Origin: Eledone cirrhosa
Lineage: Eukaryota
Direction: 5' to 3'
Assembly: GCA_964016885.1 (NCBI GenBank)
Contig: CAXHJY010000303.1
Coordinates: 1-64,000 of the forward strand
DNA length: 64,000 bases
Under the pieces are notes generated by a model. It saw only the letters and a list, made by a program, of their open reading frames with translations. It was not told the origin of the DNA and did no database searches. Shown in pieces: positions 1,273 through 51,686 of this stretch. The position numbers and the translations under genes are program-made. Each line of letters opens with the position of its first letter. Positions within the stretch are counted from its first letter, which is position 1.

Positions 1273-3890
1273 ATAACTTTGAATAACTTTGAAATGTTTT
1301 GGCCAGTATTGGCCCAGGCCATGTCTAACTTAATAGCACCACCTGGCGAAGTCTTTCAATTCAGGATTTGGGCACCATGGCCCATTCGAGAAGAGAATTA
1401 CTGTTTGCGGAGACATATCCGGGTGTGGGTGGTTTGTCCGGGATTACTTGGAGGAATTTGTCCAAAGACTTCTTGAATTTTGTGTGGTCAGTTTCTGTTT
1501 TGACGTGTCCTGGTGTGATGTTGAAGAGAGCAGGGCCGATTGAGGTGAAATAATTGTGCCGTATTGTTGTTATGAGTTGCGATTTAGATTTTTGAATGGG
1601 ACGGATAGCACGGGGCCCAAGCCTTGGGTGTATCTTGAAGGCGATGCCAACATCATTTGGGCAGTGATGATGGAACATTTTCCACATCATGCAGATTATA
1701 TAACGCTCACGGCGACGTTGGAGTGAGTAAAGTTTCAGGTTTTCCAATCGACCCCAGTAGTCAAGGTCTGACATGCCATCTATCTTTTTCGTGATTGCCC
1801 TTTGAGGAGCTTCAAGTTTCATGATACTTTGTTTCGTGTGGGGAGACCACAGTGGACAACAGTATTCAAGGTGTGGTCGGGCGAAAGTAGAGAAGAGAAG
1901 GATAATGGTGCGGGAATCTCTCGACTGGAAGGTTCTGAGGATCCAGGAACACATTCTGCGGGCCATGTCAACTTTGCTGTTTATATGCGTGGTCCAGCTT
2001 ATGTTGCTGTCCACGGTTACTCCCAAGTCTCTGATGTTGTTAGATGCCACGAGAGTTTCCCCGGAGGGAAGGGAGTACGGGAGTTTCAGAGCATCCTCTT
2101 TTCCAAAGTGGATCAGTTCGAATTTGTCTTCGTTCAGTAACATGTTGTTCTTTTCTGCCCATTGGGTAACAGCCAGTAGGTCTGACTGAAGGCTTATCCG
2201 GTCATCCACGCCATTGATGACCTTTTGGAGCTTGGAATCATCAGCGAAAATTTTAATGTTGCTGTGTTTGATGATGTCAGTGATGTCATTAATATAGATG
2301 ATGAAGAGAAGTGGGCCCAACACAGTGCCTTGTGGGACCCCACTACTGACTTTGGCTGGGCTTGATTTGACTCCCTCAACTACAACATGTTGGGTTCTGT
2401 TTGACAGGAAGCTCTTGATCCACTGCAGCAGCTTTCCAGTGACACCAATATTGGACAGCTTTCTCAGTAGAATGTTATGATCAACCCTGTCAAAGGCCTT
2501 GCTGAAATCAAGGTAGATAACATCAGTGTTGGAACCCTCTCCCAAGGCTCTCAAAATGTCATCAAAGTGATGCAGTAGTTGCGTCAGGCAATCCCTTCCA
2601 TTACGGAATCCATGCTGGTTGGAGTTCAGCATATTGTTACTCTCAAGGAAGTGGGTCATTCGCGATCTCACCACTCGCTCAAATACCTTAATGATATGAG
2701 AGGTGAGTGAGATTGGACGGTAATTCACGGCAAGGGATATGTTTCCCTTTTTGAAAACTGGGACAACAGACTGGGATAGAAGGTTTTCTGGCACATATCC
2801 AGCATCAGTGAGTTCCGCCACAGATTGGCAAGAGGAGAAGCAAGTTGGTGTTGACACGCCTTCAAGACACAAGCAGGGAACCTATCGGGACCTACTGCTG
2901 AATTATGCTTGATTTCCTTTATTGCCGCCAAGACATCAGGGGCGCCAAACGTTATGTCCGATAAGGTGTAATGGGGAGTAACATCGCCGATACAGCCCAG
3001 ATCGGCCATATCAGGATTGCTGAAAACAGAGCAGTATTGTTTCTGCAGTATCTCACCCATGGTTTTAGCATTGTCTTGAAGAGTGCCATTTTCATCAATT
3101 AGAGGGCCAACAGTAGAGCCAGTGATTTTGTGTTTTTTTGCAAATGAAAAGAACACTTTGGGATTGAGTTTGATCTTCTCAATGGCCCAGGCCTCTTCAG
3201 CTCTTCTCTGATTGTTGATGAGGGACATTATGTTGTTTTGGAGGTTATGTTTTTTAATCTCTAGTGATGAAATGGCAGTCAAGTTGATGTGTTGCTGCTG
3301 ACAGTATTTCAGCTTGTTGATTTTTTTGTTCGTTCTCTTAATTTTTCTGATGAGCGTTTTTCTATTTCTAGGGATTCTGCTCTTAGATTTGTTTATAGTT
3401 CTTAATGGGGTGTGTTTAGCACATATGTTTGTAACAGTGTCCACAAATGTCTGCCAGGACTTTTGATGTTAGTGGGTGTATGAGTGTGCGTGAAGGACCA
3501 GTCGACATGTGCAAGATCATGACTGATCGCTTCCCAGTTTGCATTGTGGAAATCCATAGCGTCAAACGGATGGACAGGAGAGATGACATTGGGTTTGTAT
3601 ATTGGACGGTGGAATCTCAGATCACAGAGAACCATGTCATGATCAGAGAGTAGAGTTTTCTCCACTGCAATATTGTGGATATTGTCAGTGTGATTGCTGA
3701 AAATTAAGTCTAGGACGTTTTTGTGGCACCTCGTTGGTTCGAGCACTAGTTGGATAGGAAGAAATCATCCATGAAGTCAAGAAGCGATTCCACAGCTTCC
3801 CTGTCAGAGGTTGAGGCAGAAGAACCTGGTGGCAGGGTGTTTGTGGACCAGTCAACTCCGGGGAGGTTGAAGTCCCCCATCATTAAGATG
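1273..3890 (-). mobile_element. 5'-truncated CR1-group LINE (C-terminal part of APE endonuclease plus reverse transcriptase), disrupted by a stop and two frameshifts
   Basis: Minus-strand pieces: [11 protein letters not shown] (~3880), EPTR..NVLDLIFSN..SDH (3402-3746), linker (2725-3444), then RT with YRPISLTS, YLDFSKAFDRVDH, SGVPQGTVLGPLLF, FADDSK, DLGV, HLEYCCPLWSPH, SLQRRRER (1361-2872). A short 3' UTR ends in a 10-bp repeat x2 (1273-1292). Confidence 0.93.
1361..2872 (-). pseudogene. LINE reverse transcriptase domain ORF (uninterrupted 3' portion of ORF2)
   Basis: 503-aa ORF with non-LTR RT motifs including FADD. Its first ~25 residues are out of frame with the upstream linker ORF. Confidence 0.9.
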
Positions 3891-5063
<1,173 letters not shown>

Positions 5064-5219
5064 TAGGAAGGGCATCCAGCTGTAGAAATCAAGCCAGATC
5101 AGTTCCTGTATGAGCAAGGCATGGTCAGCCGACCAGACACTGCCCACAACAGGACAACCCGTCTAACCCATGCTAGCGTGGAAGAACGGACGTAAAACGG
5201 TGATGATGATGATGATGAT
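5064..5219 (+). mobile_element. Short 3' end of RTE LINE/RTE-tailed SINE with (GAT)n tail
   Basis: ttaggaagggcatccagctgtagaaa...acccatgctagcgtggaagaacggacgtaaaacgg(tga)n matches the 3' UTR of the RTE copies at 33745 and 42814. Confidence 0.85.
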
Positions 5220-5937
<718 letters not shown>

Positions 5938-6096
5938 ATATTGTTATACTTTGGGAGGGTCATGTTGCCAATAAGAAACACACGCACCAGTTGCTTTCAC
6001 TTCAATTTAATTTAATATATATTTATAAATTTACAAATTTATAAATTTCTGGTTGGTTGGTTGGTTCCACAACCAGATAGTTGTTTATATATATAT

Positions 6097-6141
6097 AGTC
6101 ATAGTTCTTTCGTCACACACTCTGTGACCTCTTCAGTGACT
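6097..6141 (-). ncRNA. Minimal type I hammerhead ribozyme (mirror copy in the left palindrome arm)
   Basis: Exact reverse complement of 6253-6297. Confidence 0.78.
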
Positions 6142-6252
6142 GGGGATTTCTTTCTTCGTTTCTGTGCCTTTCCTTTCTTCTATCCTACGCCATTTTTGAA
6201 ATGGCGTAGGATAGAAGAAAGGAAAGGCACAGAAACGAAGAAAGAAATCCCC

Positions 6253-6297
6253 AGTCACTGAAGAGGTCACAGAGTGTGTGACGAAAGAACTATGACT
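6253..6297 (+). ncRNA. Minimal type I hammerhead ribozyme
   Basis: agtca CTGAAGA g gtcaca-gagtg-tgtgac GAA ag-aa-ct A tgact: 5-bp stem I, 6-bp stem II, 2-bp stem III, CUA triplet, one extra nt after the core. Confidence 0.78.
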
Positions 6298-6514
6298 ATA
6301 TATATATAAACAACTATCTGGTTGTGGAACCAACCAACCAACCAGAAATTTATAAATTTGTAAATTTATAAATATATATTAAATTAAATTGAAGTGAAAG
6401 CAACTGGTTGCGTGTGTTTCTTATTGGCAACATGACCCTCCCAAAGTATAACAATATCGGTTTCAACACACGATTTCAGATAAAGAATCTTGCTAAACAA
6501 ATTCAGAAACGAAA

Positions 6515-6977
<463 letters not shown>

Positions 6978-7024
6978 ATATAATATGTTGAGAAGGTAAC
7001 ACACCAGAGAGAGATATATAGTGC

Positions 7025-7391
7025 TGTAGCGGTTGTCTCCCTTGTTTTGATTGGGATCTAGACGGGAGGTGGAACCCTTTCTGCGACTTCCGGTCAGAGC
7101 CCTATAAAACTAACAACGTTAAGCTTCCTTTCTCTCTTTGCCTTTTCGGCACCAGGTCAAGAGTCTTCTCATTTGGCTCTGCCATTAATTTGGCCAACAG
7201 GCGCCTGGCCTTAGCCAGGCGCTTTCTGCCAGCCGCGTTTGCCTGGCAATCAAAACGGTAACTACTAACTTTGTTTCATTCTAACATCTATCTTTGACAT
7301 GTCAAGTATTCCATCTACCGTTAATTAAATATTATATACACAAACCATGTCTCGTTTTGTTACATTCATACAACTCAGTACTCTCGCTATA
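7025..7391 (+). repeat. 5' LTR
   Basis: 367 bp; TATA-like ctataaaa ~7103; GC hairpin gcgcctggc-ctta-gccaggcgc 7201-7222; attaaa ~7324. Confidence 0.93.
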
Positions 7392-7392
7392 T

Positions 7393-7424
7393 TGGTGACC
7401 CTGACGTGATACGAACACGCAGCC
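7393..7424 (+). promoter_or_regulatory. Primer-binding site complementary to the tRNA-Trp 3' end, extended to 32 nt
   Basis: tggtgaccctgacgtgatacgaacacgcagcc versus the reverse complement of metazoan tRNA-Trp (…GGCTGCGTGTTCGAATCACGTCGGGGTCACCA, from memory): 2 mismatches. Confidence 0.88.
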
Positions 7425-8692
7425 GTTCATCGCTATAAGTGGTCACCCCCCAAAAAAGAAAAAAATAGCACATCTGGTTTTGTGAGTAACATTACGAATA
7501 CACAGCAAATTTAGCGACAAACTATGAAAATACTCAAGGACACGCACACACGCACATGTGGAATTCGCACAGACATACTTTTTCTCTCACGCATCAATTA
7601 ACTGTCGCATTTCACCAATATATATATATATATTTCTCGTTTCTTACAACGAACTCTTTCAAAACACAAAAAAAAAAAAAAAGAAATTTGATATTCTTTA
7701 AATAACATTTCAACAGGAACATTTATTTTCGATGAACCATTGCCTTTTTGTTCATCGTTTTCTTCATCGTTCAATTTTTTTTTTTTTTTTTTCCAAAAGT
7801 TCACACCAATAATTATGCTGAGTGAAGCCTTTCTTTTTCATCATTGTCACTTTCAAAATTGCACTATCATTTTCTCGCGCGTTAGAAATATTTTTTTTTC
7901 AACCTTGTATTGGCACGTGTAGGCAGCATAAATTCTCGATTCACTGAGATGTCTCTACTCACAGACAGCCGCACGCCAGAGATATCATTTATCACCAGGG
8001 ATTCTTCAGCCTTAAGCTATATTCTTCTATTTGCCGGTTTATAAATTTACAATGTAAATTTACAGTTGATAACCGCGCATTTATTAGGAATGCTTATTTC
8101 TCTGGTCGCTGGCCTCTTGACCCTTCCAGGTCAACGCATTCTCAACATCGACCATCAACTTCGGCTGCTATTTCTAGCACTTTGCGCAACTCATTTTTTC
8201 TAAAAAAAAAAATTTTTTTACTGTGAATTTAAACACCGAATACGCTCACTCAGCGAGACAACAGCAGCCGCAACAGCAATACATCAATACAGCTTCACCA
8301 AAGCCAGAGAATTCATTTTTGCAGCACTCTTCCTGTGAGAAAATCCATTCGGAGGTTGGAAATTTCACGATATACCACAGAACAGAAACCACCTGCATTC
8401 ATTCTCTGGAACACACTTTCTTTCCTGCTGTCATGTGATTGCACACCTGTGAACTATATTTTGAACTTTGAGCTCTTCTATTACTTTTACTTTATTACAT
8501 TGTATCTTTGGGTGATGGATAGATGGATGTCCAGTCGTTCTCTGGCCAAGAGCGGTTGGCTACCTTGATATCTATCATTGATTTTTCCAAACATTCTTTT
8601 GTCGTAATTTTCATGCCTGTTACAACATTCTCGCCAACTTGCTACATATTTTCATTTCGATTTTTATACACTAAAATTCTGGCGGGAGGTTA

Positions 8693-9060
8693 TGTAGCGG
8701 TTGTCTCCCTTGTTTTGATTGGGATCTAGACGGGAGGTGGAACCCTTTCTGCGACTTCCGGTCAGAGCCCTATAAAACTAACAACTTTAAGCTTCCTCTC
8801 TCTCTTTGCCTTTTCGGCACCAGGTCAAGAGTCTTCTCATTTGGCTCTGCCATTAATTTGGCCAACAGGCGCCTGGCCTTAGCCAGGCGCCCTCTGCCAG
8901 CCGCGTTTGCCTGGCAATCAAAACGGTAACTACTAACTTTGTTTCATTCTAACATCTATCTTTGACATGTCAAGTATTCCATCTACCGTTAATTAAATAT
9001 TATATACACAAACCATGTCTCGTTTTGTTACATTCATACAACCTCAGTAATCTCGCTATA
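8693..9060 (+). repeat. 3' LTR
   Basis: 368-bp near-identical copy of the 5' LTR, preceded by ggcgggagg-tta. Confidence 0.93.
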
Positions 9061-9188
9061 GTGCGTTATCAATAATACAGGGAAAAAACCAGCAGTGTAT
9101 GGAATCTATAACCTATGAAAGGCAGACTATAGACACGATAATTAAAAATATAAATTAAAACGTAAATAAATACCTCTATAACTATATA

Positions 9189-9268
9189 ACACACGTACTA
9201 ATCCAAAGATATGTTTCACCAGAAATTTGTTGAAAGAAATGGTCTAGTCTCGGTTCATCAGCGTGTGT
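9189..9268 (-). ncRNA. Type I hammerhead ribozyme
   Basis: Minus strand: acacacg CTGATGA acc(g)aga...tctggt GAA ac-atatctttggatta-gt A cgtgtgt; 7-bp stem I, intact core, GUA triplet. Confidence 0.85.
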
Positions 9269-10007
9269 AAGGCCATACATTTCAGACAACACTAAGAGAA
9301 TTTTACAATTGACTGTCCAACTACACGTGGGAGAGAGAAGTCACAGCGTGTTTAAGGGCAGTGAACCGGTGGCCTCTGAGAGACGAACTGCTAGAAAGGG
9401 CAGCCCAAAGCCACTCAGAGAAGTGTGCTCAACCAAACAGAGATAGGAAAGACTGTTGTTAGGAGCGAAATATCACGATAAATTAACGGAGGCATAGGCC
9501 GTCGTTATTCCCTGTAAATAATGTGCTCAAAGGAGAAGAGATCCTGAGCCCTTTAAAATATAATATGTTGAGAAGGTAACACACCAGAGAGAGATATATA
9601 TATATATATCTCTCTGGTGTGTTACCTTCTCAACATATTATATTTTAAAGGGCTCAGGATCTCTTCCCCTTTGAGCAGTAACCCAGTATGAATTGATTTG
9701 AATAAACAATATAAAGGTGATCTGTAACCCAGTATGAATTGATTTGTTAACTTGAGCACCTTTATATTGTTTATTATAAATGTTAGTATATTGTATATTG
9801 TAAATGTTAATATATTATTATTATATTATTATTGTGACATCTATATTGTTTGTGTAAATTAACCGGAGATTATCTATCCTATTATATTGTATGATATAGT
9901 ATATAATTGTATTATTTATTATTTATTATATGTGCTACTTATAATTATATCATATTATTACCTCATGTATATTGGGTAGATGTATTAGTATTATTATTAT
10001 TATTATA

Positions 10008-10205
10008 GGCGGTGGATTGGCAGCATCGGTAGAGGGTCGGACGCCATGCTTTCCAGCATAGTTACGTCCCTTTACGATCTGAGTTCAAATCCCACCGAGG
10101 TTGACTTTGCCTTTCATCCTTACGGGGTCGATAAAATAAAGTACCAGTAATGCACTGGGTAATTGCTGGCCTTGTGCCAAAAGTAGAAACAATTATTATT
10201 ATTAT
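10008..10205 (+). mobile_element. tRNA-derived SINE family A
   Basis: A-box-like tggcagcatcggtag, B-box gagttcaaatccc, central gactttgcctttcatccttacggggtcgataaaataaagtaccag, (TTA)n tail; at least 10 copies in the window. Confidence 0.88.
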
Positions 10206-10659
10206 TTTCATTCCTATCATGCTTATTTTTGTATTCAAACTCTTAATAAGGTTTAATTTGTGCAGTTGAAGATGGATGTGTGTATTGTTGTATGTGTATG
10301 TGTGTGTACGTGTGCGCACATATATACATATGCATATTGTACCTTTTGATTTTTATTGTAATTTTAATGTTGGTAAAGGTATATTATATTATATTATATT
10401 ATATTATATTATATTATATTACATTGTATTATATATAATTCCTGCTCTATATAACCACCTTTGTTTAGCTCTAGGTTTTTTTTGCTTTGGACTATATTTG
10501 TAATATGGTTCTTAATGTTATATACATCCTTAGTAATTTTTATTATATATTTTTATTATTTTTATTATATATTTTTGCAATACTTTAGTGTATGTACACT
10601 CCATATTCTTCGGAGCTTCCGGCTTGTATCTGCCGATATTACTTCTTGTTGTTTTAATT

Positions 10660-10697
10660 GCCCTGATGAGTCCTTAATAGGACGAAACATTGTCGGC
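10660..10697 (+). ncRNA. Minimal type I hammerhead ribozyme
   Basis: gcc CTGATGA gtcct-taat-aggac GAA ac-att-gt C ggc, followed by aataaa; canonical core and GUC triplet. Confidence 0.9.
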
Positions 10698-10768
10698 TAA
10701 TAAAGACTTTTGATGTATTGAAGGCTTCTTTGTTTTACTCTCTTAATATATATATATATATATATTTG

Positions 10769-11119
10769 AATGTAAGTATGTATGTATACGTATATATATA
10801 CGTACATGCATATATGTATACAGACGTACAGTAGCATGTATATATATACATACAGGCACACATATATATGCACGTATCAGTTTACCGAACATTTATTAAT
10901 AAGCTTGAAACTAGTACATCGTTCCTGTGTCAGTGTTGAACAAAAAGGTGACGTGGTTTCCTAAACACTGTAAGGCGTAATTCAGGCTGTTTGTTTGTTT
11001 ACAAAAGATCAAACCGAGCATTATAATAAATGTTCGGTAAACTGATACGTGCATATATATATGTGTGCCTGTATGTATATATATACATTCTACTGTACGT
11101 ATACATACATACTTACATT
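10769..11119. mobile_element. Fold-back/MITE-like element with long inverted arms
   Basis: 10824-10897 pairs with ~11026-11100 (…gcacgtatcagtttaccgaacatttatt) and 10769-10792 pairs with 11096-11119. Confidence 0.7.
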
Positions 11120-11187
11120 TAAGTAAGTGCCGTACTAAGAGTGAGAAATGAAATTTCGTTTCATTCTATTCCATTTATATATATTTG

Positions 11188-11218
<31 letters not shown>

Positions 11219-11369
11219 ATTTAAAACTGCACTATCCACAAGTGTTTTTAACCTTCATATCATGTCCTTCTATTTTATCTGATGAAAACACAAATGTTAT
11301 TGCATGATGATATTTGTTTTTGAAATGCGCATAATAAAATACATGGAACTCATTTAACCATCTTTTGAT

Positions 11370-11407
<38 letters not shown>

Positions 11408-15197: not shown

Positions 15198-15541
15198 GGA
15201 GGCACATGGCTTAGTGGTTAGAGCATTCGCCTTGCAATCAAAAGGTTGTGAGTTCAATTCTCAGACTGGGTGATGTGTTGTTTCTTTGAGCAAGACACTT
15301 TATTTCAAATTGCTCCAGTTTCCTCAGCTGTAGAAATGAGATGATAGGGGCTAGGGTCCATATCATTCCACTGCAAAGTGGTCGTGGAGGTGCCACGGCA
15401 AAAAAGCACCCAGCACTCACTGTAAATGAGGTTGGTGTTAGGAAGGGCATCCAGCTGTAGAAATCAAACCAGAATCAGTTCCCGTCCCACCCTTGCAAGC
15501 TGGGGGGAAAAAAAGCGGACGTAAAATGAAATGATGATGAT
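15198..15541 (+). mobile_element. tRNA-head, CORE-like SINE with RTE-derived tail (family B)
   Basis: A box tggcttagtgg, B box gagttcaattc, ttgagcaagacact core, tail shared with the RTE 3' UTR, (GAT)n end. Confidence 0.88.
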
Positions 15542-19256: not shown

Positions 19257-19715
19257 TTAACCCTTTAACATTTAATTTACTCTACATTTACTATTGTATT
19301 TTCATGGTGAATACTTTCACACATAATATCGAATCTACAAGATTTTGATATTATTTATTTTGAGAACAGTACCTTAACATAAGTATGAGTGGCTGGTTTG
19401 AATAGAAAAAGGTGATAGAATTCTGGCTGGATACAGCCGGTTTAAATGCTAATGGGTTAAAGTATTTGTTTATCAAAAAGCCTTCCATCACAGTTTTATG
19501 CAATTCCAAACACCTGCTCAGCCCTGTAGCATTTAAACTGGCCATATCCGGACAGAATTCCCTCACATCTTTCTGTTCAAACCGCCTGGAACCAGCCGCT
19601 CATACTGATGTTAACGTATTGTTCTCAAAATAAATAATATCAAAATCTCATAGATTTGATATTATGTGCGATAAAGCCTTTACTGTGAAAATGTAATAGT
19701 ATACTAAAAGGTTAA
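19257..19715. mobile_element. Two TTAA-flanked MITE copies in opposite orientation (piggyBac-like ends)
   Basis: ttaaccctttaacattt...aatgctaatgggttaa (19257-19460) and an inverted copy at ~19520-19715; same family as 25533-25752, 30947-31161 and 37916-38142. Confidence 0.7.
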
Positions 19716-20876: not shown

Positions 20877-21741
20877 TGAGGTGGTGTCAGAAGGTTCCTG
20901 GGCTAGTTATGTTTAAAAAAAAAAACAACTAATAATTTAAGTTTTAACACCATCTCCTTCGAAATAGTCACTTTGTGTAGCAATACACCGGCCCCAGCGT
21001 TCATGCCACTTTTGGAATACAGCCTGGAAGTTGTTTTCTGTAAATAAGATGAGGACCTCCTGCGGTTCACTCTGGATCTCGGCAACGGTGTTAAAATGGC
21101 AACCTTTGAACAGCCTTTTCAGCTTGGAGAAGAGATGGAAGTTTGCAGGTGGTAAATCTGGCGAATAGGGCAGGTGCAGAAGCAATATAATATTGTTTGG
21201 GGCAAGAAACCCATGAGTGAGGAGAGATTGGAGACAGGGTACATTGTTGTGAAGAATCCAATTCTTCTTACACTTCACAGATCTGGTCGTATATCCTCCC
21301 TCAAATGCCTCAAAACATCAGCAATATTGTTGATTGACCGCCATTGATCCTCTTGTACAAGCTGATTAATTTGCTCCACATTTCTGAGGGTGACGCTCAT
21401 GGCAGGTCTTCCACTTTTGAAGCGCATATGTCATTTGAAAAATTGCGTGCGGCCCATTGCCAGAGCATGCTCAATGTCTCTGTAGCAGACTTCCCAAGTT
21501 GAATACAAAATTTCCCGTTGGTTCTTTGTTCCAACTTCCTGTTCATGACAAAATCGCAGACTACAGCATACACATGATTACAAAAACACAAATTTCACAA
21601 CTTGCGAAGTGAACACAGTGATGTCACTCGGCACACTGGCGCATGAAAGTCACTGCTAGCTCCCACTGCATTTGCAACAACCATGTGTTGCCATCTGTTG
21701 GGGTGCTACAGAACTATCCAGAAACTTTTTGACACCACCTC

Positions 21742-24694: not shown

Positions 24695-24885
24695 GGATTG
24701 GCAGTATCAGTAGAAGGTCAGACACCATGCTTTACAGCATAGAGTTACGGCCCTTTATGTTCAGAGTTCAAATCCCGCCGAGGTTAACTTTGCCTTTCAT
24801 CCTTACGGGGTCAATAAAATAAAGCACCAGTAATGCACTGGGATAATTGCTGGCCTTGTGCCAAAAGTAGAAACAATTATTATTG
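24695..24885 (+). mobile_element. SINE family A
   Basis: Matches 10008-10205. Confidence 0.85.
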
Positions 24886-24889
24886 CCCC

Positions 24890-25280
24890 ATATGTCACCT
24901 GTGTTCTATTGTATGGCTGCTCAGCATGGACCCTCACCTCAAAACTGGAAAGAAGATTAGATGGAGCCTACACTCACATGCTAAGAGTGGCCTTGAATGT
25001 TACTTGGAGAGTTTGTCTGACCAATGAGCAACTGTATGGGATCATTCCAGTGTCAGACATCATCAAAGAGCACAGTCACATTGCTAAAGATGAAATTGTT
25101 AGTGTTCTTTTGTGGTAGCCTACACAAGGAAGAGCTAGCAGAGGATGACAAGCCAAGTCCTATATCAAGCAGATTTATGACGACATAAACTGCAATCCCT
25201 TTGATCTGCTGAATATGATGAACAATAGAATTGGATGGCTATAGAGAGTCAAGAGAATCCATGCAAGCAGTGTGACTTAT
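24890..25280 (+). mobile_element. Degraded RTE-like LINE 3' fragment
   Basis: VLLYGCSAWTLTSKLERRLDGAYTHMLRVALNVTW thumb-region motif. Confidence 0.78.
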
Positions 25281-27385: not shown

Positions 27386-27726
27386 CATCATCATCATCAT
27401 TTTACGTCCGCTTTTCCCTTCTTGCAAGGGTGGGACGGGAACTGATTCTGGCTTGATTTCTACAGCTGGATACCCTTCCTAACACCAACCTCATTTACAG
27501 TGAGTGCTGGGTGCTTTTTTGCCGTGGCACCTCCACGACCACTTTGCAGTGGAATGATAGGGACACCAGTCCCTAGCATCTCATTTCTACAGCTGAGTAA
27601 ACTGGAGCAATGGGAAATAAAGTGTCTTCTCAATCAAGGACACAACACATCACCCGGTCTGAGAATTGAACTCACAACCTTTCGATTGCAAGGCCAATGT
27701 TCTAACCACTAAGCCATGTGCCTCCA
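27386..27726 (-). mobile_element. SINE family B (RTE tail)
   Basis: Reverse complement of 15198-15541. Confidence 0.88.
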
Positions 27727-31161: not shown

Positions 31162-32861
31162 ATGTTATTGTCACATAGGTTAGCCCTCTTGTTAACCTCT
31201 TATTAATTTCTCATGAAAGACTGTTTTTCAGTTAATTTTGAAAATAAGAATTTTAATGCATTTAGTAAAATAGGTTATTTTTAAGCTGATGTTAAAAAAA
31301 ACTAACAAAACAAATGTTCTTATAAAAAATTATGATGGAATGTTTAATTTTAAATATGAATGCTTTAAAACAAAATACTTTATATCATAGAGTAGTATTG
31401 ACACCAAATTATTGGAAAACATTTCTGCTTCTACAATATAAAATTGCTTGTTTTAAATTGTTTATATTTATCTAAAAAAACCTTCCATCATAATTTTATG
31501 TAAGAACCTCCAAACCCCAGTTTAATCACATGAAAGTAATATAAATTTGACCACTTCAGTCTGTCACACAATGTGTGAATGTATGTGTGTTTCATGTGAA
31601 TGTATGCCTGTAAGTGTGTATTTTTGTGTTTCTGTGTTTGCGCATTTATATTTATATACTCATACATATAAATGTATGCACATATACACATATGCATCAG
31701 CATGTTGAAAAAGGTTCTAGTATTACTAAATTCCTCCAAATTCTTGATTATTTTTCAAAATTATTAAAAAAAACATAAGTGTTGTATTTCTTTAAAAATA
31801 CAGTAACAAATCAGTTGTTTTACTGAAGTAGAATAATAGACTGAATGCCAAACCATAACATTCTCTCTCCCATCGTTGTTACCATTGGCATCATCCATCT
31901 ATTCCATTGTCAGCAGCAATAAATCTGGTTATTGCTAAGAGGCCTGTATACTAAATGCTTAACCCTTTTGAGACCAAACTGCTTGAAACCATCTCTGGTT
32001 CTATGATACATAGCTGTTTATTTTAAAGTGTTATATTTATCTAAAAAGCTTCCATCAATTTTAGGTAAGGACCTTTTGTTAAGTTGTTCTAAATACCAAC
32101 TTAAGAATGGAGGAGTTATTTTACTAAATCTCTCCAAATTCTTGATTATTTTCAAAATTATTTGAAAATCATAGGCAGTGTCCTTCAATAGAAATATGGT
32201 AATATAAGGTTTAACAACTGAAAGATTTGGAGTTATGTAAGCAGTTAAATATTTTTAGGTTATTTAACACAACATCCTGCTATGATTTACCAGAAAATGT
32301 CTTTTAAAAAAACAGGCTTCTTAATTAAAATGTTTGTAGTATTCTTACTAGTGGATAAAAAATTATTGCAAAAATTTGCAATCTTAGAATAAGGACTTTA
32401 ATTTTTAATGCTATGTAGCCATAATTCTATTTTATATTTTTCAAGAATGTTTAGTTAATGTGGTTTCCTGAGGTACAAGAATTTAAGACCTAAGTGGTGA
32501 ATTGTCAGAGAAAGTGTTTAAGAGCATTTTGTTATGGCACTTTACATCCGGATTTCAAATCCCGTTGAGGTCAACTTTACTTTTCATCCTTCCAGGGTCA
32601 ATTAAATAAAGTATCAGTCAAGTACTGGGGTTGATCTAATTGGCTTTCTCCTCTCCACCCATTTTGTTGGTTTTATACCTAAATTAGAAACCATTTATGC
32701 ATCTCTGATAGAGAAAAAAACTATCTACAGTAGAAGCTGCTTATTGTGATCAAGTTGGGTCAAAACCTTTTCTATAACAATAACTAACTGATAACATTAA
32801 CCAATTTATAATATATTTTAACTGGAAAGTCACTAGAACTTACTATTTGATATCATTATCT

Positions 32862-33711: not shown

Positions 33712-33744
<33 letters not shown>

Positions 33745-33747
<3 letters not shown>

Positions 33748-36018
33748 TCATCATCATCTTCATTTAACGTCCATTTTCCACGCTAGCATGGGTTAGACGG
33801 GAGTTGTCCCACTTGAAGCAAGGCTGGTCGGGTGACCGTGTCTCACTCATATAGGACTATCTGGCACGTTTTCTATGGCTGGATGCCCTTCCTAACACCA
33901 ACCACATTTACAGTGTGAAACTGGGAACTTTTTACCGTGTTACCTACACGGTCACATTACAGCATGGACTGTGTGTGTGTTTTTTGTCGTGACACCTACA
34001 CGATCTCGATTTCATTTTCTCGTGCTGTTGGTGCGAGTGGGAGGATGGGGTAGGGGTAGTGGATCGGGGTGTATATTTGGTTAAGAGGTGCCTACTGACT
34101 GAAGGTTTCGCTTTGTACATAGGCAAGGCGTGTCTTCTGTATTACTGCCTAGCGCCAAAGATCTCGGTCCAGAGACATTGTCTTAGAGAGATGTAAGTGT
34201 GTGAGGTCGGAATTTATCAGATCATCCCAGGTTTTTCTGGTTCTACCTACTCCGTAACTACCATCAATTTTGATCGCCCTGCACTTTTTTATGCAGCTGT
34301 CGTCTTTCATGCGCATCACGTGACCATACCAACATAGTCTTCTCTCAAGTAAACAGCATCTTATCCCTCTTATTCCTAATTTCTCACTAGTTCATTTATG
34401 CTTTGCTGTTCACGTATATTACTATTACACATCCAACGGAGCATGCATGCTTCGTTTCTTTCCAGTCTACGCAGGTCCTCTGCATGTAATGCCCATGTCT
34501 CACTGCCATGTAGCATTGCTGTTCGTTTACAGGCATCATACAGCCTGCCTTTCATTTTTAGAGAGAAACCTTTTGTGGCCAACAGCAGTATAAGCTCTCT
34601 GAACATTTTCCATCCTGTTCTGACTCTGGCTACTGTACTTTCAGAACACCCTCCACCACTGCTGATTTCGTCACCCAGGTAACGGAAAGTGTCTACTATT
34701 TCTATAGAACCATCTGGACAATAGAAGGAGCTAGTATCCTTTGGACACTTGCTACCTATTGCAACTGAGCATCGGCCACATATAAAGTCTACGTTCTTAG
34801 ATAGTTTACCTGTGATCCCACTACATCTTTTATGTACCCATACTTTGCATTTGGGACATAAAATGGAATTTCTGCCTACTCCTTTCCTACACACTGAGCA
34901 TGGCCATTTCCCTGAGGGCACCTGTGCCCTATTTTCCTTTCTACAAACTAGAACTTTAGTCTTAGACAAGTTAACTTTAAGGCCTTTTGATTCTAGGCCG
35001 TGCTTCCATGTTTGGAATTTCTTCTCTAGTTGCTTCTAGCCATTGATTCAGCTATGAGCGTTAGATCATCTGCGTATAGGAGTTCCCATGGGCAGCCATC
35101 TTGAACTCCTTTGTTATAGCCTGAATGGCAATAATAATTAAGAGGGGGCTAAGGACAGAGCCTTGATGAACGCCAACTTTTACACTAAATTCTTCACAAT
35201 ATTCATTGTTAATTCTAACCTTACTGACTGTTTCATTATACATAGCTTGTATAGCTCTCACATGCCATTCATCTACACCTAGTTTTCTAAGAGCCCACCA
35301 GATAATGTAGTTGTCGTACAAGAAAAAAAGTGTCTGTGGTACTTTTACCTGACACAAACCCAAACTGCATTTCATCTAGATCAATTCGCTCTCTGATTAG
35401 TTGCGCTATAACTCTTTCTGTGACCTTCATGACCTGGTCAACTAACTTAATGCCTCTATAGTTTCCCCTATCTAGAGCATCCCCTTTACCCTTGTAGCAG
35501 CATCTACGCCAGTCTTTCGGTATGACCCAATTCTGTATTACTTGGTTAACTATACGGGTGACCATAGTGTGTCCCACCTTACCAGATGCCTTCAACATCT
35601 CAGCAACTATCTCTGAAAGCCCAGCTACCTTGCCTGTCTTCATATCTTTGATTGCCTTACTTATTATGCTACCTTTAACTTGCACCGCTGGTCCTTCTAT
35701 TGGATCGATTTGGGGCAGACTATCTTTTTCCCATTTATTCTCCTCATTTAATAGTCTCTCGTAGTGACACTTCCAGGCTATCTTCTTATCAGTATCAGTG
35801 AGCGCAAGTACACCATTATCATTACGGACACACTTCTCCCCGACAATATCACGGTTTTCCTTGACACATTGTCTAGCAATCCTGAACACCTCACGTTTTT
35901 GGTCCTCACGTTGTAGAACATGCTTGAACTTTCTATCCTCTGCTACCCTTTTTGCAAGGTACACTTGTCTCCTAGCTTCTCTTCTGGCCACTTGATAGTG
36001 CTCTCTACTTCCCCCATC
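33745..36018 (-). mobile_element. 5'-truncated, frameshifted RTE-clade LINE with a PHD-like Cys/His insert
   Basis: YKGKGDALDRGNYRGIKL, MQFGF, GVHQGSVLSPLL, CSVC..SILCPKCKVWVHKRC..FICGRC, FRYLG, MLHGSETW; (GAT)n tail. Confidence 0.93.
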
Positions 36019-42813: not shown

Positions 42814-45500
42814 CATCATCATCATCATCATCATCAACGTTTAACGTCCGTGTTCCACGCTTGCATGGGTTTGGACGGGGGTAGTCCCACTTGAGGCAAG
42901 AGTGATTGTCTTGCTCGCATAGGACTGTCTGGCAGGTTTTCTACAGTTGGATGCCCTTCCTAACACCAACCACATTTACAGTGTGGGTCTGGGAGGTTTT
43001 TACCGTGTTGCCTACACGGCCACATTACAGCGTGGACTGTGTGTTTTTTTGTCGTGACACCTACACGATCTCATTTGTTTCGGCCTGGATGGCGCGGCAC
43101 CAACATAACTTTACATAGAACGGGGTGGTGTGGATGGGGTGGGTGGTGGTGGTGGTGGGACGGGGTGTATTTTGTTAGAGATGCCTACTGGCTGGAGTAG
43201 GTTTTACTATATATTTAGGTAAGGCGGGTCTTCTCTGTTACTGTGTACCGCCAAAGGTCTCGGTCCAGTGACATTGTCTTGGAGAGGTGTAAGTGTGTGA
43301 TGTCGGAGTTTATCAGCTCGTCCCAGGTTTTTCTAGGTTTACCTATTCCGTGACTACCGTCTATCTTTATTGCCCTGCACTTTGTTATACAGCTATCGAC
43401 TTTCATGCGCATCACGTGTCCATACCAACGTAGCCTTCTCTCGAGTAAACAACATCTGATCCCTCTTATCTCTAATTTTTTCCTTAGTTCGTTTATGCTT
43501 TGCCGTTCACGTATATTACTGTTACACATCCAGCGGAGCATGCAAGCTTCGTTCCTCTCTAGTCTGCGTATATCCTCTGCACACAATGCCCAGGTCTCAC
43601 TGCCATGCAGCATTGCTGTTCGTATGCAGGCATCGTACAACCTGCCTCTCATTTTTAGGGAGAACCCTTTAGCAGCTAATAGTGGTATAAGCTCTCTGAA
43701 CTTTTTCCAATCAGTTCTGACTCTAGCTACAGTACTTTCAGAGCACCCTCCCCCACTGCTGATTTTATCGCCCAGGTAACGGAAGCTGTCCACTATTTCT
43801 ATAGAACCCTCTGCGCAATTGAAAGAGCTAGTATTTTGTGGGCACTTGCTGCTACTTATTGCACCAGAACACCGGCCACATGTAAAATCTATGTTCTTAG
43901 TTAGCTTACCTGTGATCCTACTACATCTTTTATGCACCCATACTTTGCATTTAGGACATAAAATGGAGTTTCTACCTACGCCTTTCCTACACACCGAGCA
44001 CGACCATTTCCCAGAAGGGACCGCCGCCTTGTTTTCTTTCCTACAAACTAGAACTTTGGTCTTAGCCAGGTTAATTTTAAGTCCTTTTGACTCTAGGCCG
44101 TGCTTCCATGTTTGGAATTTCTTCTCTAGCTCGGCCATTGATTCCGCTATGAGTGTCAGGTCGTCTACGTATAGGAGTTCCCATGGGCAGCCTGTCTTGA
44201 ACTCCTCTGTTATAGCCTGAAGGGCAATAATAAATAGTAGGGGGCTGAGAACAGAGCCCTGATGGACGCCAACTTTTACGCTAAACTCTTCACTATATTC
44301 GTTGTTAATTCTAACCTTGCTGACTGTTTCTTTATACATGGCTTGTGTAGCCCTCACAAGCCATTCGTCAACGCCTAGTTTTCTAAGAGCCCACCAGATA
44401 ATGGAGCGGGGGACTCTGTCGAAGGCTTTCTCCAAGTCGACAAAGGCTAAGTAGAGGGGTTTACCTTTAGCTAGGTACTTCTCCTGTAGTTGTCGTACTA
44501 TGAAAAGAGCGTCTGTGGTACTTTTGCCTGACACAAACCCGAACTGCATTTCATCTAGGTCAATTCTCTCTGATTAGTTGCGCTATTACTTTTTCCGTGA
44601 CCTTCATGACCTGGTCGATTAATTTAATGCCTCTATAGTTACTCCTATCTAGGGCGTCTCCTTTACCCTTGTAACAGTTAACGATGATGCTGCTATGCCA
44701 GTCCTTCGGAACAACCCCATTCTGTACGACTTGGTTAACTATGCGGGTGACCATGGTGTGTCCCACCGTGCCAGATGCCTTCAGCATCTCAGCAACTATT
44801 TCCGAAGGCCCAGCCGCCTTACCCGTCTTCATATCCTTGATTGCCTTACTTATTATACTCCCCTCGACTAAAACTGCTGGTCCCTCTATTGGGTCGATAT
44901 GGGGGAGACTGTCTTTCTCCCATTTATTCTCCTCATTTAGTAGCCTTTCATAGTGACACTTCCAAGCTACCTTCTTATCAGCGTCGGTGATGGCAAGTGT
45001 GCCATCGTCGTTTAGTACACACTTCTCCCCGACAATATCACGGTTTTCCTTGACGCATTGCCTAGCAATCCTGAACACCTCACGTTTTTGGTCATCGCGT
45101 TGTAGAACATGCTTGAACTTTCTTTCCTCAGCTTCCCTTCTTGCTAAGTACACTTGTCTCCTAGCTACACTCCTGGCCACTTGATAGTCTTCTCTACTTC
45201 CCCCATCCCGCCATACTTTCCAAGCCTGCTTTTTGGCCTTAATTGACCCCTCCACCTTACTGTTCCACCACCATGTTGCTCTCCTCCTGCCTACAGGCCT
45301 GCTCCAGCCACAGACTTCGTCTGTCGCCATCAGCAGGTTTGCCTTCAGGAATTCCCACTGTCCCCTCTATATTGTCCGACTCTAAATGCTCTTCCTTACT
45401 GTCGAAAGCATTAAGTAATATGCTTTGGAATTTATTTCTGGCTGTGGGGTCCTTTAGCTTCCATATTTGTCTCCTGAGGATAACTGGTACCTCCAGTCGC
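42814..45500 (-). mobile_element. 5'-truncated RTE-clade LINE, same family as 33745-36018
   Basis: ORFs 44560-45330 and 43215-44549 are joined by a 2-bp deletion relative to the other copy; FVDLEKAFDRVPR, GVHQGSVLSPLLF, LLYVDD, PHD-like insert, RLRWYGHV; (GAT)n tail. Confidence 0.95.
43215..44549 (-). pseudogene. RTE reverse transcriptase ORF fragment (444 aa)
   Basis: Open RT core, thumb and C-terminus; catalytic motif reads YVDD. Confidence 0.9.
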
Positions 45501-46770: not shown

Positions 46771-47110
46771 AGGCACATGGCGTAGTGGTTAGAGCATTGG
46801 CCTTGCAATCGAAAGGTTGTGAGTTCAATTCTCAGACCGGGTGATGTGTTGTTTCCTTGAGCAAGATACTTTATTTCACATTGCTCCAGTTTACTCAGCT
46901 GTAGAAATGAGATGATAGGACTGGGGTCCCTATCATTCCACTGCAAAGTGGTCGTGGAGGTGCCACGGCAAAAAAGCACCCAGTACTCACTGTAAATGAG
47001 ATTGGTGTTAGGAAGGGCATCCAGCTGTAGAAATCAAGCCAGTATCAGTTCCCGTCCCACCCTTGCAAGCAGGGAAAAAGCGAACGTAAAATGAAATGAT
47101 GAAATGAAAA
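46771..47110 (+). mobile_element. SINE family B (RTE tail)
   Basis: Matches 15198-15541. Confidence 0.88.
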
Positions 47111-47389: not shown

Positions 47390-48585
47390 ACCACAACTAC
47401 AACCTCTACTATTTACACCAACACTACAATTACAAATACTACTACTTAGACCAACACCACAACTACAACCACTACCACCACAACTACAACTACTTGCACC
47501 AACACCACAACTACAACCTCTACTACTTACACCTATACCACAACTGCAACCACTACTACTTATACCACTACCACCACAACTACAACTACTTGCACCAACA
47601 CCACAACTACAACCTCTACTACTTAGACCAACCCAACAACTACAACCACTACTACTTATACCACTACCACCACAACTACAACTACTTGCACCAACACCAC
47701 AACTACAACCTCTACTACTTACACCTATACCACAACTGCAACCACTACTACTTATACCACTACCACCACAACTACAACTACTTGCACCAACACCACAACT
47801 ACAACCTCTACAACACCACAACTGCAACCACTACTACTTATACCACTACCACCACAACTACAATTACTTGCACCAACACCACAACTACAACCTCTACTAC
47901 TTAGACCAACCCAACAACTACAACCACTACTACTTATACCACTACCACCACAACTACAACTACTTGCACCAACACCACAACTACAACCTCTACTACTTAC
48001 ACCTATACCACAACTGCAACCACTACTACTTATACCACTACCACCACAACTACAACTACTTGCACCAACACCACAACTACAACCTCTACTACTTAGACCA
48101 ACCCAACAACTACAACCACTACTACTTATACCACTACCACCACAACTACAACCTCTACTACTTACACCTATACCACAACTGCAACCACTACTACTTATAC
48201 CACTACCACCACAACTACAACTACTTGCACCAACGCCACAACTACAACCTCTACTACTTACACCAACACCACAACTGCAACCACTACTACTTATACCACT
48301 ACCACCACAACTACAATTACTTGCACCAACACCACAACTACAACTGCTTGCACCAACACCACAACTACAACCACTACTATTTACACCAACACCACAACTA
48401 CAACCACTACTACTTAGACCACTACCACCACAACTACAACTGCTACTACTTGCACCAACACAACTACAATCACTACTACTTCACCACACTAATACAACTT
48501 ACACCACCAATGACACTACTAAGACCACTACCACCGCTACCATCTCTACTCATATCACCACCACAACTACAACCACTGCAGCCAT
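47390..48585. repeat. C/A-rich minisatellite, 96-bp unit built from trinucleotides
   Basis: cacaactacaactacttgca recurs at ~47478, 47574, 47670 and 47766; two variants alternate. Confidence 0.9.
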
Positions 48586-49548: not shown

Positions 49549-51354
49549 GTGAGTATAGTTCTTCCTCATTTTATTGTAAAACCATTTGTCAGTTTTATTG
49601 CCTCTACTCATTTATTTTACTTCTTTGATATCTGGGTTTTTTTTTGTTTCCTTGTTGTTTTCAGTAATATTTCCAACTCCTGCTGCCTAAAACTATTGCT
49701 GTTACACCTAAGTACTTTCAGTCACACCTGAGTACTCTCAGTTACTATGCAACAACATTGTATCTAATTGGTAGATAACTTGTTGAGCCTCAATGTTACC
49801 TCTGATCAAGCAAATCTATAATCAAAGTTATTTAAGCAGTGACCATCTCATATATTTTTCTTTTCAGGCATAGTATATATAATGTGATATTTTTGAAAGA
49901 TGGTAAGGTGTGATTTTAGGAAGATTTGGCTGCTATTTTTAGCAGATTGAGCAATCAAGTAGTGGCTTCTTTATTGGCTAGTTGCTTGAAGTCATTTGGG
50001 TAACAACTGACAACTAACATCTGTGATGTTCCTAATGCAAATCTTTAATTTGTTCAAATCTGAATAAATTATACTCTGGTAAGAAATATCAATAGTGCTA
50101 TTTTACTTCTTCAACACTGTCATAATGTTATATTTAGTGAGGCTCTACTTACAAACAAACAGTGAAGGCACATAGCTTAGTGGTTAGTGCATTGGATTTG
50201 TAATTGTGAGGTTGTGAGTTTGATTCCCAGACCAGGTGACGTGTTGTGTCCTTGAGCAAGACATTTTATTTTATGTTGCTCCAGTTTACTCAACTGTAGA
50301 AATGAGTTGCAACATCACTGGTGCCAAACTGTATCCAACTTTGCCTTTCCCTTGAACAACACTATTGGTCTTCCACAAAAAAACCTTTCCCAGACTTTGA
50401 GCCTTGGAGGGGAACTTTCTAGGTGTAAATTTGAAGGTGGTCTTTACCTTTTTACTTACAAACAAGAAATAAAGTGACACCAAAAGATAAGAAATAAAGA
50501 TCATCAAAAAACTTTGATCTGAGGAGATATATTAAAGTCTGAAATAGCAGGGCACGCATATATGGTATAGTGGAAGCACGTTCTCTAGCAGTAAGTGAGC
50601 TGAACTTACAATCATAATGTTGTGTGTTCAACAGGCCGAGAGGTTTACATCCTGCTTGCATATGAACAAATGTTCTATCAAGTACAGAGAAGTTGTCAAG
50701 TCTTTTGACAAAAACTGATTCTTACACAAACATCAGATTTTTACACTCTACTGCAGAATACAAAATATGTAATTGCAGGATATTTTGCCAATTTCCACCA
50801 ACTTCAACAGGCACCAAAATATCTGGAATAATACATACAGATACTTCTGGTCATATCCATTTGTAAAATGACAATATTTAAAAAACAACCTTTATTATCA
50901 TACTTGTAATGGCTTAGTGGTAAAGGTGTTGGACTTACAATCATAATGTTGTGGGTTTGATTCTTGGACTGGGTTATGTGTTGTGTTCTTGAGCAAAATG
51001 CTTCATTTCATGTTGCTCAAGTATACTCAGCTAAAAATGAGTACCAGCAATAGCTGGGGGTTTAATGCTGCAATGGACTGGGTTTCTGTTCAAGGGAAAG
51101 TCTTGTACTTTCAGTTGCTTAACACCATAGAAGCTGGGATAAGCATTGGCCTGATGAGCGCTGGGCTTGAGACAAATTTTAGGCTTTTTAATGCGCACAT
51201 TCAGAAAATATATCTTTGAAATATGCAATTTTATGGATGTTTCAAGGAAACGAATTGGCATGGGGATATTACACTGTAGTTTTGTTCAAATATATATATA
51301 TGTGTATATAATAATGTAGCTATATGTGTATATATATATATATATGTATATATA

Positions 51355-51684
51355 TCATCATCATCATTTTACGTCTGCTTTTCTCTGCTTGCAAGGGTGG
51401 GATGGGAACTGATTCTGGCTTGATTTCTACAGCTGGATGCCCTTCCTAACACCAACCTCATTTACAGTGAGTGCTGGATGCTTTTTTTCTGTGGTGCCTA
51501 CATGTCCACTTTGCAGTGGAATGATATGGACCCTAGTCCAATCATCTCATTTCTACAGCTGAGTAAACTGGAGCAATGTGAAATAAAGAGTCTTGCTCAA
51601 GGAAACAACACATCATCCGGTCTGAGAATTGAACTCACAACCTTTCAATTGCAAGGCGAATGCTCTAACCACTAAGACATGCGC

Positions 51685-51686
<2 letters not shown>
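51355..51686 (-). mobile_element. SINE family B (RTE tail)
   Basis: Reverse complement of 15198-15541. Confidence 0.87.

Follow-up and report, generated by a model that had tools for sequence, protein, structure and literature searches.

A 540-nt non-coding unit that carries a hammerhead ribozyme motif and is split by a nested long terminal repeat (LTR) element was analysed in a stretch of DNA from Eledone cirrhosa (assembly GCA_964016885.1, contig CAXHJY010000303.1, positions 1 to 64,000 of the forward strand). This 64,000-nt stretch is called the window; all coordinates refer to the whole of it, and the hammerhead strand is the minus strand. The insertion is bounded by a direct repeat, an inverted copy and a one-sided extension (Table 1), and its ends resemble those of Penelope-like elements (PLEs).

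Layout of the insertion

The first-pass annotation of this DNA had described a terminally redundant unit with a 540-nt period, capped by an inverted copy of its own end, and all of its coordinates were reproduced. Positions 6978-7020 are identical to 9558-9600 (43/43; BLAST E 6e-17), and the match can be extended on neither side. TA runs make up 12 of the 43 nt: 7 nt lie at the inner end, and the 5 nt at the outer end are common with the flanking (TA)n. Because the outer run is ambiguous, the true direct repeat (R) measures 38-43 nt. Excision of the nested LTR element together with one GTGC leaves the 540-nt unit (GC 39.1%), which on the minus strand consists of a 34-nt initial segment (T), a 463-nt body and the 43 nt of R. 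T is 34-39 nt long when the 5-nt TA ambiguity at the R end is allowed for. The insertion as a whole amounts to 1.08 units and reads, again on the minus strand, as inverted R plus 34 nt, R, 34 nt plus the 463-nt body, R and (TA)n.

The annotated hairpin is also present, with 9524-9600 pairing to 9601-9677 at 75 of 77 positions. Since the next 10 positions in a row are mismatched, the edge of the hairpin is sharp. The inverted arm replicates R together with the 34 nt by which R is followed in the direct copy, whereas at the direct 3' end R passes into (TA)n without any extension. Both truncated upstream copies, direct and inverted, break off at the 7-nt TA run that belongs to the unit itself. 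At the right junction are a 23-nt direct repeat (9678 = 9724) and a 19-nt inverted repeat (9701-9719 and 9757-9775), and 7 nt are common to the end of the tail (9671-9677) and the flank (9752-9758). The right flank is AT-rich, not (TA)n. Divergence is 2/77 between the hairpin arms and 0/43 between the direct repeats, compatible with the 6/368 of the LTR pair, which argues for a real and fairly young insertion. The divergence of the arms is consistent with an insertion age at least that of the LTR pair.

Table 1. Features of the 540-nt unit, its nested element and neighbouring insertions (window coordinates).
Feature	Position	Strand	Basis or remark
Head-to-head palindrome between (TA)n arrays, arms 258/259 nt, 1 indel	5938-6457	.	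0.5 kb from the unit
(TA)n-rich microsatellite receiving the 3' end of the unit (putative target)	6514-6977	.	Tandem Repeats Finder period 2, 6514-6986; sequence
R3, final 43 nt of the unit, 3' end, tail-less; outer 5 nt ambiguous with (TA)n	6978-7020	-	Exact match to 9558-9600
Left copy of the 4-bp target duplication GTGC	7021-7024	.	Right copy 9061-9064
Non-coding LTR element, 2036 bp	7025-9060	+	LTRs, target duplication
Unit body, 463 nt, right GTGC first on +; T-rich, GC 23-35% downstream of the ribozyme	9061-9523	-	
Type I hammerhead motif, cleavage predicted 3' of H17 (9196/9195)	9189-9268	-	
T, initial 34 nt of the unit, recurring as tail on the inverted copy	9524-9557	-	Hairpin alignment; tail definition from PMC8557442 and PMC11167929
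R5, 43-nt 5'-truncated upstream tandem copy (minimal pseudo-LTR), cut off at the unit's TA run	9558-9600	-	
5'-truncated copy in inverted orientation, meeting R5 head to head; made up of R (9601-9643) and the 34-nt tail (9644-9677)	9601-9677	+	75/77 complementary to 9524-9600
Rearranged junction with the right flank	9678-9775	.	Short direct and inverted repeats
AT-rich stretch with a canonical minimal type I hammerhead (10660-10697, +) and (TA)n at its end	9678-10745	.	
Short piece between two (TA)n runs, type I hammerhead 11271-11341 (+), long helix II, palindromic helix III	11214-11375	.	

Hammerhead motif and coding content

The motif had been annotated as a full type I hammerhead. Its type stands, with a 7-bp stem I, CUGAUGA, GAAA and a GUA with H17 at 9196, but "full" needs qualifying: helix III contains two neighbouring mismatches, helix II is closed in a non-canonical manner (see below), and Rfam reported no hammerhead family at its gathering threshold, nor was a hammerhead found among the 36 Rfam matches up to E 10. 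A strict descriptor matched none of 200 block-wise dinucleotide shuffles of 1-53300, even with stem I reduced to at least 4 bp. A relaxed descriptor found 5 motifs in the real 53.5 kb, as compared to a mean of 0.08 in 200 shuffles (185 without a motif, 14 with one and 1 with two). The hammerhead motif is real but not canonical.

The predicted cut lies 178 nt upstream of the 3' end of the unit. Adopting the active-like fold would cost 3.7 kcal/mol relative to the minimum free energy (MFE), and the corresponding cost for three neighbouring motifs is 4.2-5.7 kcal/mol. As the cost is similar in the neighbours, folding neither demonstrates nor rules out activity. Some families of autonomous endonuclease-containing PLEs have a spliceosomal intron in their 5' region; in the sequence letters alone, GT and AG dinucleotides occur here downstream of the cut. 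A microRNA reading of 9515-9684 was rejected; the Rfam microRNA-family matches all fall far under their gathering scores and merely mirror the long hairpin.

The description of the unit as non-coding was borne out, the longest sense open reading frame (ORF) starting with Met on the closed unit being 32 aa and the longest sense stop-to-stop frame 52 aa. Pfam scans covered 104 ORFs of at least 40 aa in 5.9-16.5 kb and 134 ORFs of at least 62 aa in the rest of 1-53300, with low-complexity filtering. None of the 104 ORFs reached the cut-off. Above the cut-off the scans yielded LINE-type reverse transcriptase (RT) and PHD matches only, and below it one RT fragment; no GIY-YIG or PLE-type match was found among the 238 ORFs. 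Judged from these translations, the window holds no predicted PLE protein. Because an RT/GIY-YIG ORF is absent, the unit is not an autonomous PLE.

Nested LTR element

The LTR element was found as annotated, 2036 bp long, with GTGC on both sides and excisable together with one GTGC. Its 5' LTR (7025-7391, 367 nt) and 3' LTR (8693-9060, 368 nt) are identical at 362 of 368 columns, the differences being 5 substitutions and 1 indel. At 7393-7410 there is a primer-binding-like site, which we take to be of the tRNA-Trp type and which occurs once in the window; a purine tract (8681-8689) lies ahead of the 3' LTR. No hammerhead of type I, II or III was found in 7025-9060, Pfam gave nothing above cut-off for the element, and its 1.3-kb interior contains no recognisable ORF and has no second copy within the window. 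The LTR element is a later, unrelated insertion, located 135 nt downstream of the predicted cut site.

Both LTRs of the element terminate in TA. LTR ends are usually CA, and the presence of TA termini in both LTRs means that the donor element already had TA ends. The left GTGC adjoins the same TA run (compare 9594-9609) where both upstream copies, direct and inverted, stop short, a coincidence. Kinship of the element with Helenus/Ajax (PMC10886601) was considered and is not supported, the LTRs being without a tRNA or 5S match.

Penelope-like ends and the favoured origin of the unit

The kinship to PLEs suspected in the first-pass annotation is upheld by the ends of the insertion, which match the PLE layout of partial tandem, inverted copy and tail. 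All five published hallmarks (PMC8557442, PMC3846280, PMC2377424, PMC8969392) are present: a partial tandem, an adjacent inverted 5'-truncated copy, a one-sided tail of 30-40 bp, a hammerhead near the 3' end and a TA target. The tandem consists of 9558-9600 repeating 6978-7020 and holds only if R is element sequence, not target; the tail consists of the 34 nt (34-39 nt) on the inverted copy, with none at the direct end. PLE insertions are described as partial tandems with an inverted 5'-truncated copy right at the 5' end and a 30-40-bp tail that is often one-sided (PMC8557442). The tail of Penelope measures 34-37 bp (PMC2377424), and in Pen2a_Av two direct pseudo-LTRs (pLTRs) have an inverted one beside them, with one inverted pLTR bearing a 31-bp tail; palindromes are noted at inverted junctions (PMC3846280). 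Hydra-clade PLEs insert into (TA)n and carry a hammerhead near the 3' end (PMC8557442 supplement). In vitro, the PAc protein cuts and extends both strands, favouring AT-rich DNA, begins reverse transcription at two internal sites flanking the tail and uses uncut RNA as its main template, hammerhead cleavage being dispensable (PMC11167929).

We favour the reading that the unit derives from PLEs, is non-autonomous and resembles a retrozyme monomer, and that it was copied from an RNA longer than one unit and later split by the LTR element. A probability of roughly 0.58 is assigned to it; this figure and the gradings of the alternatives are judgements, not computed values. The unit retains a hammerhead and PLE end sequences without an ORF. 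The earlier proposal of an ORF-less hammerhead unit, slightly longer than one unit length and most likely mobilised in trans, is supported. The case that it had named against itself was an ordinary pLTR; the ends are indeed ordinary PLE ends, but on a unit that carries no ORF. The locus cannot release a unit-length RNA because it has one hammerhead, which lies outside the redundant 43 nt, and is interrupted; the present copy is dead as a source of such RNA.

The layout of the DNA is observed, and the steps that may have produced it are drawn from that layout and from PMC11167929. A master locus elsewhere would yield an RNA of more than one unit length, covering R-unit-T as a minimum (~617 nt), that is either uncut at the hammerhead or a circle; an uncut tandem transcript and a circle predict identical DNA here. 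A PLE RT/GIY-YIG protein acting in trans would cut a TA-rich site and start reverse transcription from two internal positions that are fixed and separated by 34-39 nt. One complementary DNA (cDNA), begun at the end of R, would run for 583 nt (1.08 units) across the hammerhead cut site, and the other, begun at the end of T, for 77 nt. Both would halt at one self-complementary TA run and be joined there head to head. The right junction may have been mended by repair using short templated repeats, and the LTR element would have arrived later, at its position 135 nt beyond the cut site.

Several points weigh against this origin. Only a single copy is present in the window, where BLAST and a motif search found no other, and "family" and "unit" are both deduced from one locus. 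The chief doubt concerns the tail: fold-back of a cDNA at the TA run could give the same hairpin, and the 34 nt would then be of arbitrary length. Such an arbitrary snap-back is conceivable because 7 nt at the end of the tail recur in the flank and templated repeats are present at the junction. The hairpin of the tail is not significant (z -0.46, with 61 of 200 shuffles equally stable), and its candidate role as a start signal for RT was dropped, its stability lying within the shuffle range. The pLTR is 43 nt here as compared to 181-218 bp in rotifer examples (PMC3846280), and the cut site is farther from the 3' end than in most Hydra-clade rows, as judged by eye (PMC8557442 supplement). Helix II is closed by A-U in place of the usual G10.1-C11.1. 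No autonomous partner was identified.

Relatives were also sought outside the window. Three short motifs of the unit gave 0 matches by exact text search of the wrapped FASTA in the supplement of PMC8557442 (Naiad, Chlamys and Hydra). A 22-nt motif gave 0 matches in prokaryotic genomes, and a 70-aa antisense frame gave no candidate; the host is not covered by either set, so neither result is evidence of absence. Host repeats seem to be missing from the protein set, because the best match to the window's LINE protein is only 67% identical over its length. No description of the present family was found in the literature searched, a scope that excluded Repbase, subscription papers and most supplements, which makes it weak evidence that the family is new. 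The main texts of PMC7229834 and 10.64898/2026.07.22.740005 do not mention tails or inverted ends.

Alternative origins

A circular template forms a sub-case of the favoured reading. A tandem array elsewhere would be cleaved at two hammerheads and the ~540-nt product closed by a host ligase, as in non-LTR retrozymes. We consider this route possible but doubtful, and hold with the same reserve that the unit belongs to a circular-RNA retrozyme family of ~540 nt, of which this insertion would bear a PLE tail and an inverted copy. The circular RNA postulated in the first-pass annotation went unsupported, as the locus has one hammerhead and a fold that is not exceptional.

The cDNA does traverse the cut site and the unit junction, as copying from a circle would entail. 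The MFE of the circular unit is -124.1 kcal/mol (z -2.2), with 1 of 100 shuffles as stable. However, z <= -2.2 is also reached by 3 of 18 GC-matched 540-nt genomic controls (drawn from 37 eligible, 20 shuffles each), the antisense strand gives z -2.1, and 57% of the unit is paired as compared to 56% in shuffles. The active-like fold, at 3.7 kcal/mol above MFE, is no poorer than those of the three neighbouring motifs, but in the circle the core is mostly predicted to be paired (probability unpaired 0.16-0.46), whereas it is free in most metazoan circles (PMC7229834). GC content (39%) and size fall within retrozyme ranges (<50% GC, PMC7229834; 51-972 bp, 10.64898/2026.07.22.740005), and the retrozymes of coral, mussel and axolotl occur as abundant circles (PMC7229834). 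On the other side, no tandem array is present and the locus has one hammerhead, eight of nine Xenopus dimers remained uncleaved in vitro (10.64898/2026.07.22.740005), and hammerhead mutants of PAc insert normally (PMC11167929).

Further features of non-LTR retrozymes are found here, namely a type I hammerhead, low GC and an ORF-less unit without its own LTR, primer-binding site or polypurine tract. At least two hammerhead units in tandem are not; the locus holds 1.08 units and one motif, and for this reason it is not filed as a retrozyme. The word CUGANGA occurs twice in 6978-9677, one occurrence being within the LTR element. A reading of the unit as a decayed dimer was rejected, the best split score (25) equalling the shuffled maximum (25). 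PLEs begin reverse transcription at internal sites that are fixed, so that even with a circle as template the copies would have common fixed 3' ends. The permutation test proposed in the earlier annotation is therefore unsuitable, as permutation is expected under neither template.

A one-off internal deletion of an autonomous PLE is likewise doubtful and stands slightly lower in our estimation. The pLTR, tail and 5' untranslated region (UTR) would be fused to the 3' UTR with loss of the whole ORF, and the 540 nt would never have been a replicating unit. The same ends are predicted, deleted derivatives of such a kind are described (PMC3846280), and short Hydra-clade UTRs could sum to about 540 nt, as judged by eye (PMC8557442 supplement). 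The copy looks young (~2% divergence), so a coding remnant should remain open, but none is present, as the sense stop-to-stop frame is at most 52 aa and the Met-ORF at most 32 aa. There is no Pfam match either, though Pfam is weak on short PLE termini.

It is unlikely that the insertion is an ordinary 5'-truncated PLE 3' end (497 nt) placed between two TA runs. In that case R would be 43 nt of host DNA duplicated at the target site, and the hairpin a later snap-back repair at the TA run. Truncated 3' ends are the commonest PLE remnants (10.64898/2026.07.22.740005; PMC8557442), three others lie nearby, TA runs border R on either side, and the junction at 9678-9775 resembles templated repair. 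Target duplications of retrozymes exceed 4 bp (PMC7229834), but those of PLEs measure 8-10 bp (PMC3846280), and 43 nt is four times that. Two rare events would be required, and it would have to be chance that the snap-back ran 34-39 nt past R, within the 30-40-nt range of PLE tails.

Capture of host DNA between PLE ends, with movement in trans, is improbable. Unrelated non-coding sequences between pLTRs have been reported (PMC3846280), and the 5' 250 nt of the body have no match in the window; on the other hand, the hammerhead inside the body near the 3' end implies that at least the last ~270 nt are element-derived, and the tail matches the 34 nt with which the body itself begins. The least probable explanation is that the hairpin or repeat arose as an artefact of assembly or amplification: such structures trouble assemblies (PMC8557442) and the palindrome nearby is almost perfect (1 indel in 259), but the arms differ at 2/77, in line with LTR divergence, and the direct repeats lie 2.58 kb apart, across a nested element with its own target duplication.

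Neighbouring insertions and other features of the window

All 5 relaxed hammerhead matches fall in 6097-11341. The four besides 9268-9189 lie in three other insertions within 3.2 kb, and the four hammerhead-bearing pieces are unlike in sequence, their local scores remaining in the shuffle range. Each arm of the palindrome contains a minimal type I hammerhead (6253-6297, plus strand; 6141-6097, minus strand) whose predicted cut lies 165 nt from the arm end, and the right arm has a 56-nt one-sided extension that may be a tail, giving a region of 5938-6513. This region is likely a PLE 3' end with an inverted copy, and its layout speaks for the favoured origin of the 540-nt unit. The stretch at 9678-10745, which is broken by a SINE-like repeat (10012-10197), is probably another PLE 3' end, and may together with the 540-nt unit form one composite insertion, a block with (TA)n at both outer sides. 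The hammerheads at 10660-10697 and 11271-11341 reach (TA)n 40-55 nt later. The locus is a TA-rich nest of PLE-type 3' ends, within which the 540-nt unit differs from its neighbours by being a complete short unit.

Older inverted-repeat structures, 72-74% self-complementary, occur at 10799-11125, 19289-19701 and 31316-31507. A LINE-type RT ORF of 506 aa (1361-3890, minus strand; RVT_1 E 7e-32) has frameshifted upstream pieces that end at a (TA)n array (3891-5941). Two LINE copies with RT and a PHD finger, at 33744-36018 and 42821-45207 (minus strand), are 82-85% alike and have relatives in marine invertebrates. A ~340-nt repeat family (15200-15537, 27388-27723, 46771-47102 and 51352-51686; 90-93% alike) has a tRNA-like head (Rfam tRNA, 15205-15268) in which ARAGORN found no tRNA gene, and is a tRNA-derived SINE. 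Copies of a second repeat family, of ~190 nt, are found at 10012, 18585, 22262, 24694, 32865 and 42440. The SINEs may resemble those of octopus. A 96-bp minisatellite of ~11 copies occupies 47468-48486, and a satellite array (29-bp units, higher-order period 58 bp) begins at 53337, covers more than 10 kb to 64000 and extends past the window. A 126-aa frame (20937-21317, minus strand) has no Pfam match at E 0.001 and, by one motif, presumably resembles the C-terminal part of a mariner-type transposase. An APOBEC1 Pfam match below cut-off (E 1.4e-4; 24818-25024, plus strand), in a frame that begins inside a SINE-like repeat, is probably due to chance.

Significance and comparison with known systems

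A single dead copy is of little importance alone, and hammerhead-bearing PLE remnants are common in animal genomes; here, four insertions with hammerhead motifs occur in ~5 kb of the window. The means by which animal retrozymes move, and the nature of their template (circle or uncut tandem transcript), are stated to be open (10.64898/2026.07.22.740005; PMC7229834). The value of the locus is that of a test case: when a unit has no ORF but a tail that can be read, both start sites of RT are predicted exactly. The unit also offers a simple genome-wide test, a tally of retrozyme monomers that end at R or at R plus the tail with inverted copies. If it were a circular retrozyme with a PLE tail and inversion, it would provide direct structural evidence of PLE enzymes copying retrozyme circles from fixed internal starts.

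Among known systems, plant LTR retrozymes (PMC7229834; 10.64898/2026.07.22.740005) share with the locus the presence of LTRs, a primer site, a 4-bp duplication and a hammerhead nearby. Their hammerhead, however, is of type III and lies in each LTR, whereas here it is of type I and outside the LTRs, and the LTR element is separate and hammerhead-free. Metazoan retrozymes (PMC7229834; 10.64898/2026.07.22.740005) are, like the unit, ORF-less, with type I hammerheads, GC below 45%, sizes of 51-972 bp and dispersed monomers, and with PLEs as their proposed mobilisers. The unit differs from them in having no array or second hammerhead, in its size (540 nt as compared to 150-450 bp, PMC7229834) and in its unexceptional fold. 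The retrozyme papers base the PLE link on co-occurrence and pLTR similarity (PMC7229834; 10.64898/2026.07.22.740005). Animal retrozymes, with dispersed monomers counted, have been concluded to be non-autonomous PLE derivatives (10.64898/2026.07.22.740005), and an earlier paper reports thousands of single PLE hammerheads per genome and puts forward circular templates (PMC4209133).

Endonuclease-containing (EN+) PLEs, such as Penelope of Drosophila virilis, Pen2a_Av of Adineta vaga, PAc of Anolis and the Hydra and Neptune clades, have the ends, the type I hammerhead and the (TA)n target in common with the unit. They differ in that the unit has no RT/GIY-YIG ORF, is 540 nt long as compared to 2-4 kb and has an upstream copy of just 43 nt; assignment to a clade requires a protein. 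Non-autonomous PLEs, including Chlamys elements such as MRC1 (PMC8557442) and short Penelope elements in Heliconius (PMC6685494), are likewise ORF-less, have pLTR-type ends and are moved in trans. A difference is that most Chlamys elements are without canonical hammerheads. Provisionally, the unit is placed with the non-autonomous PLE derivatives, a known kind of element (PMC8557442, PMC6685494, 10.64898/2026.07.22.740005).

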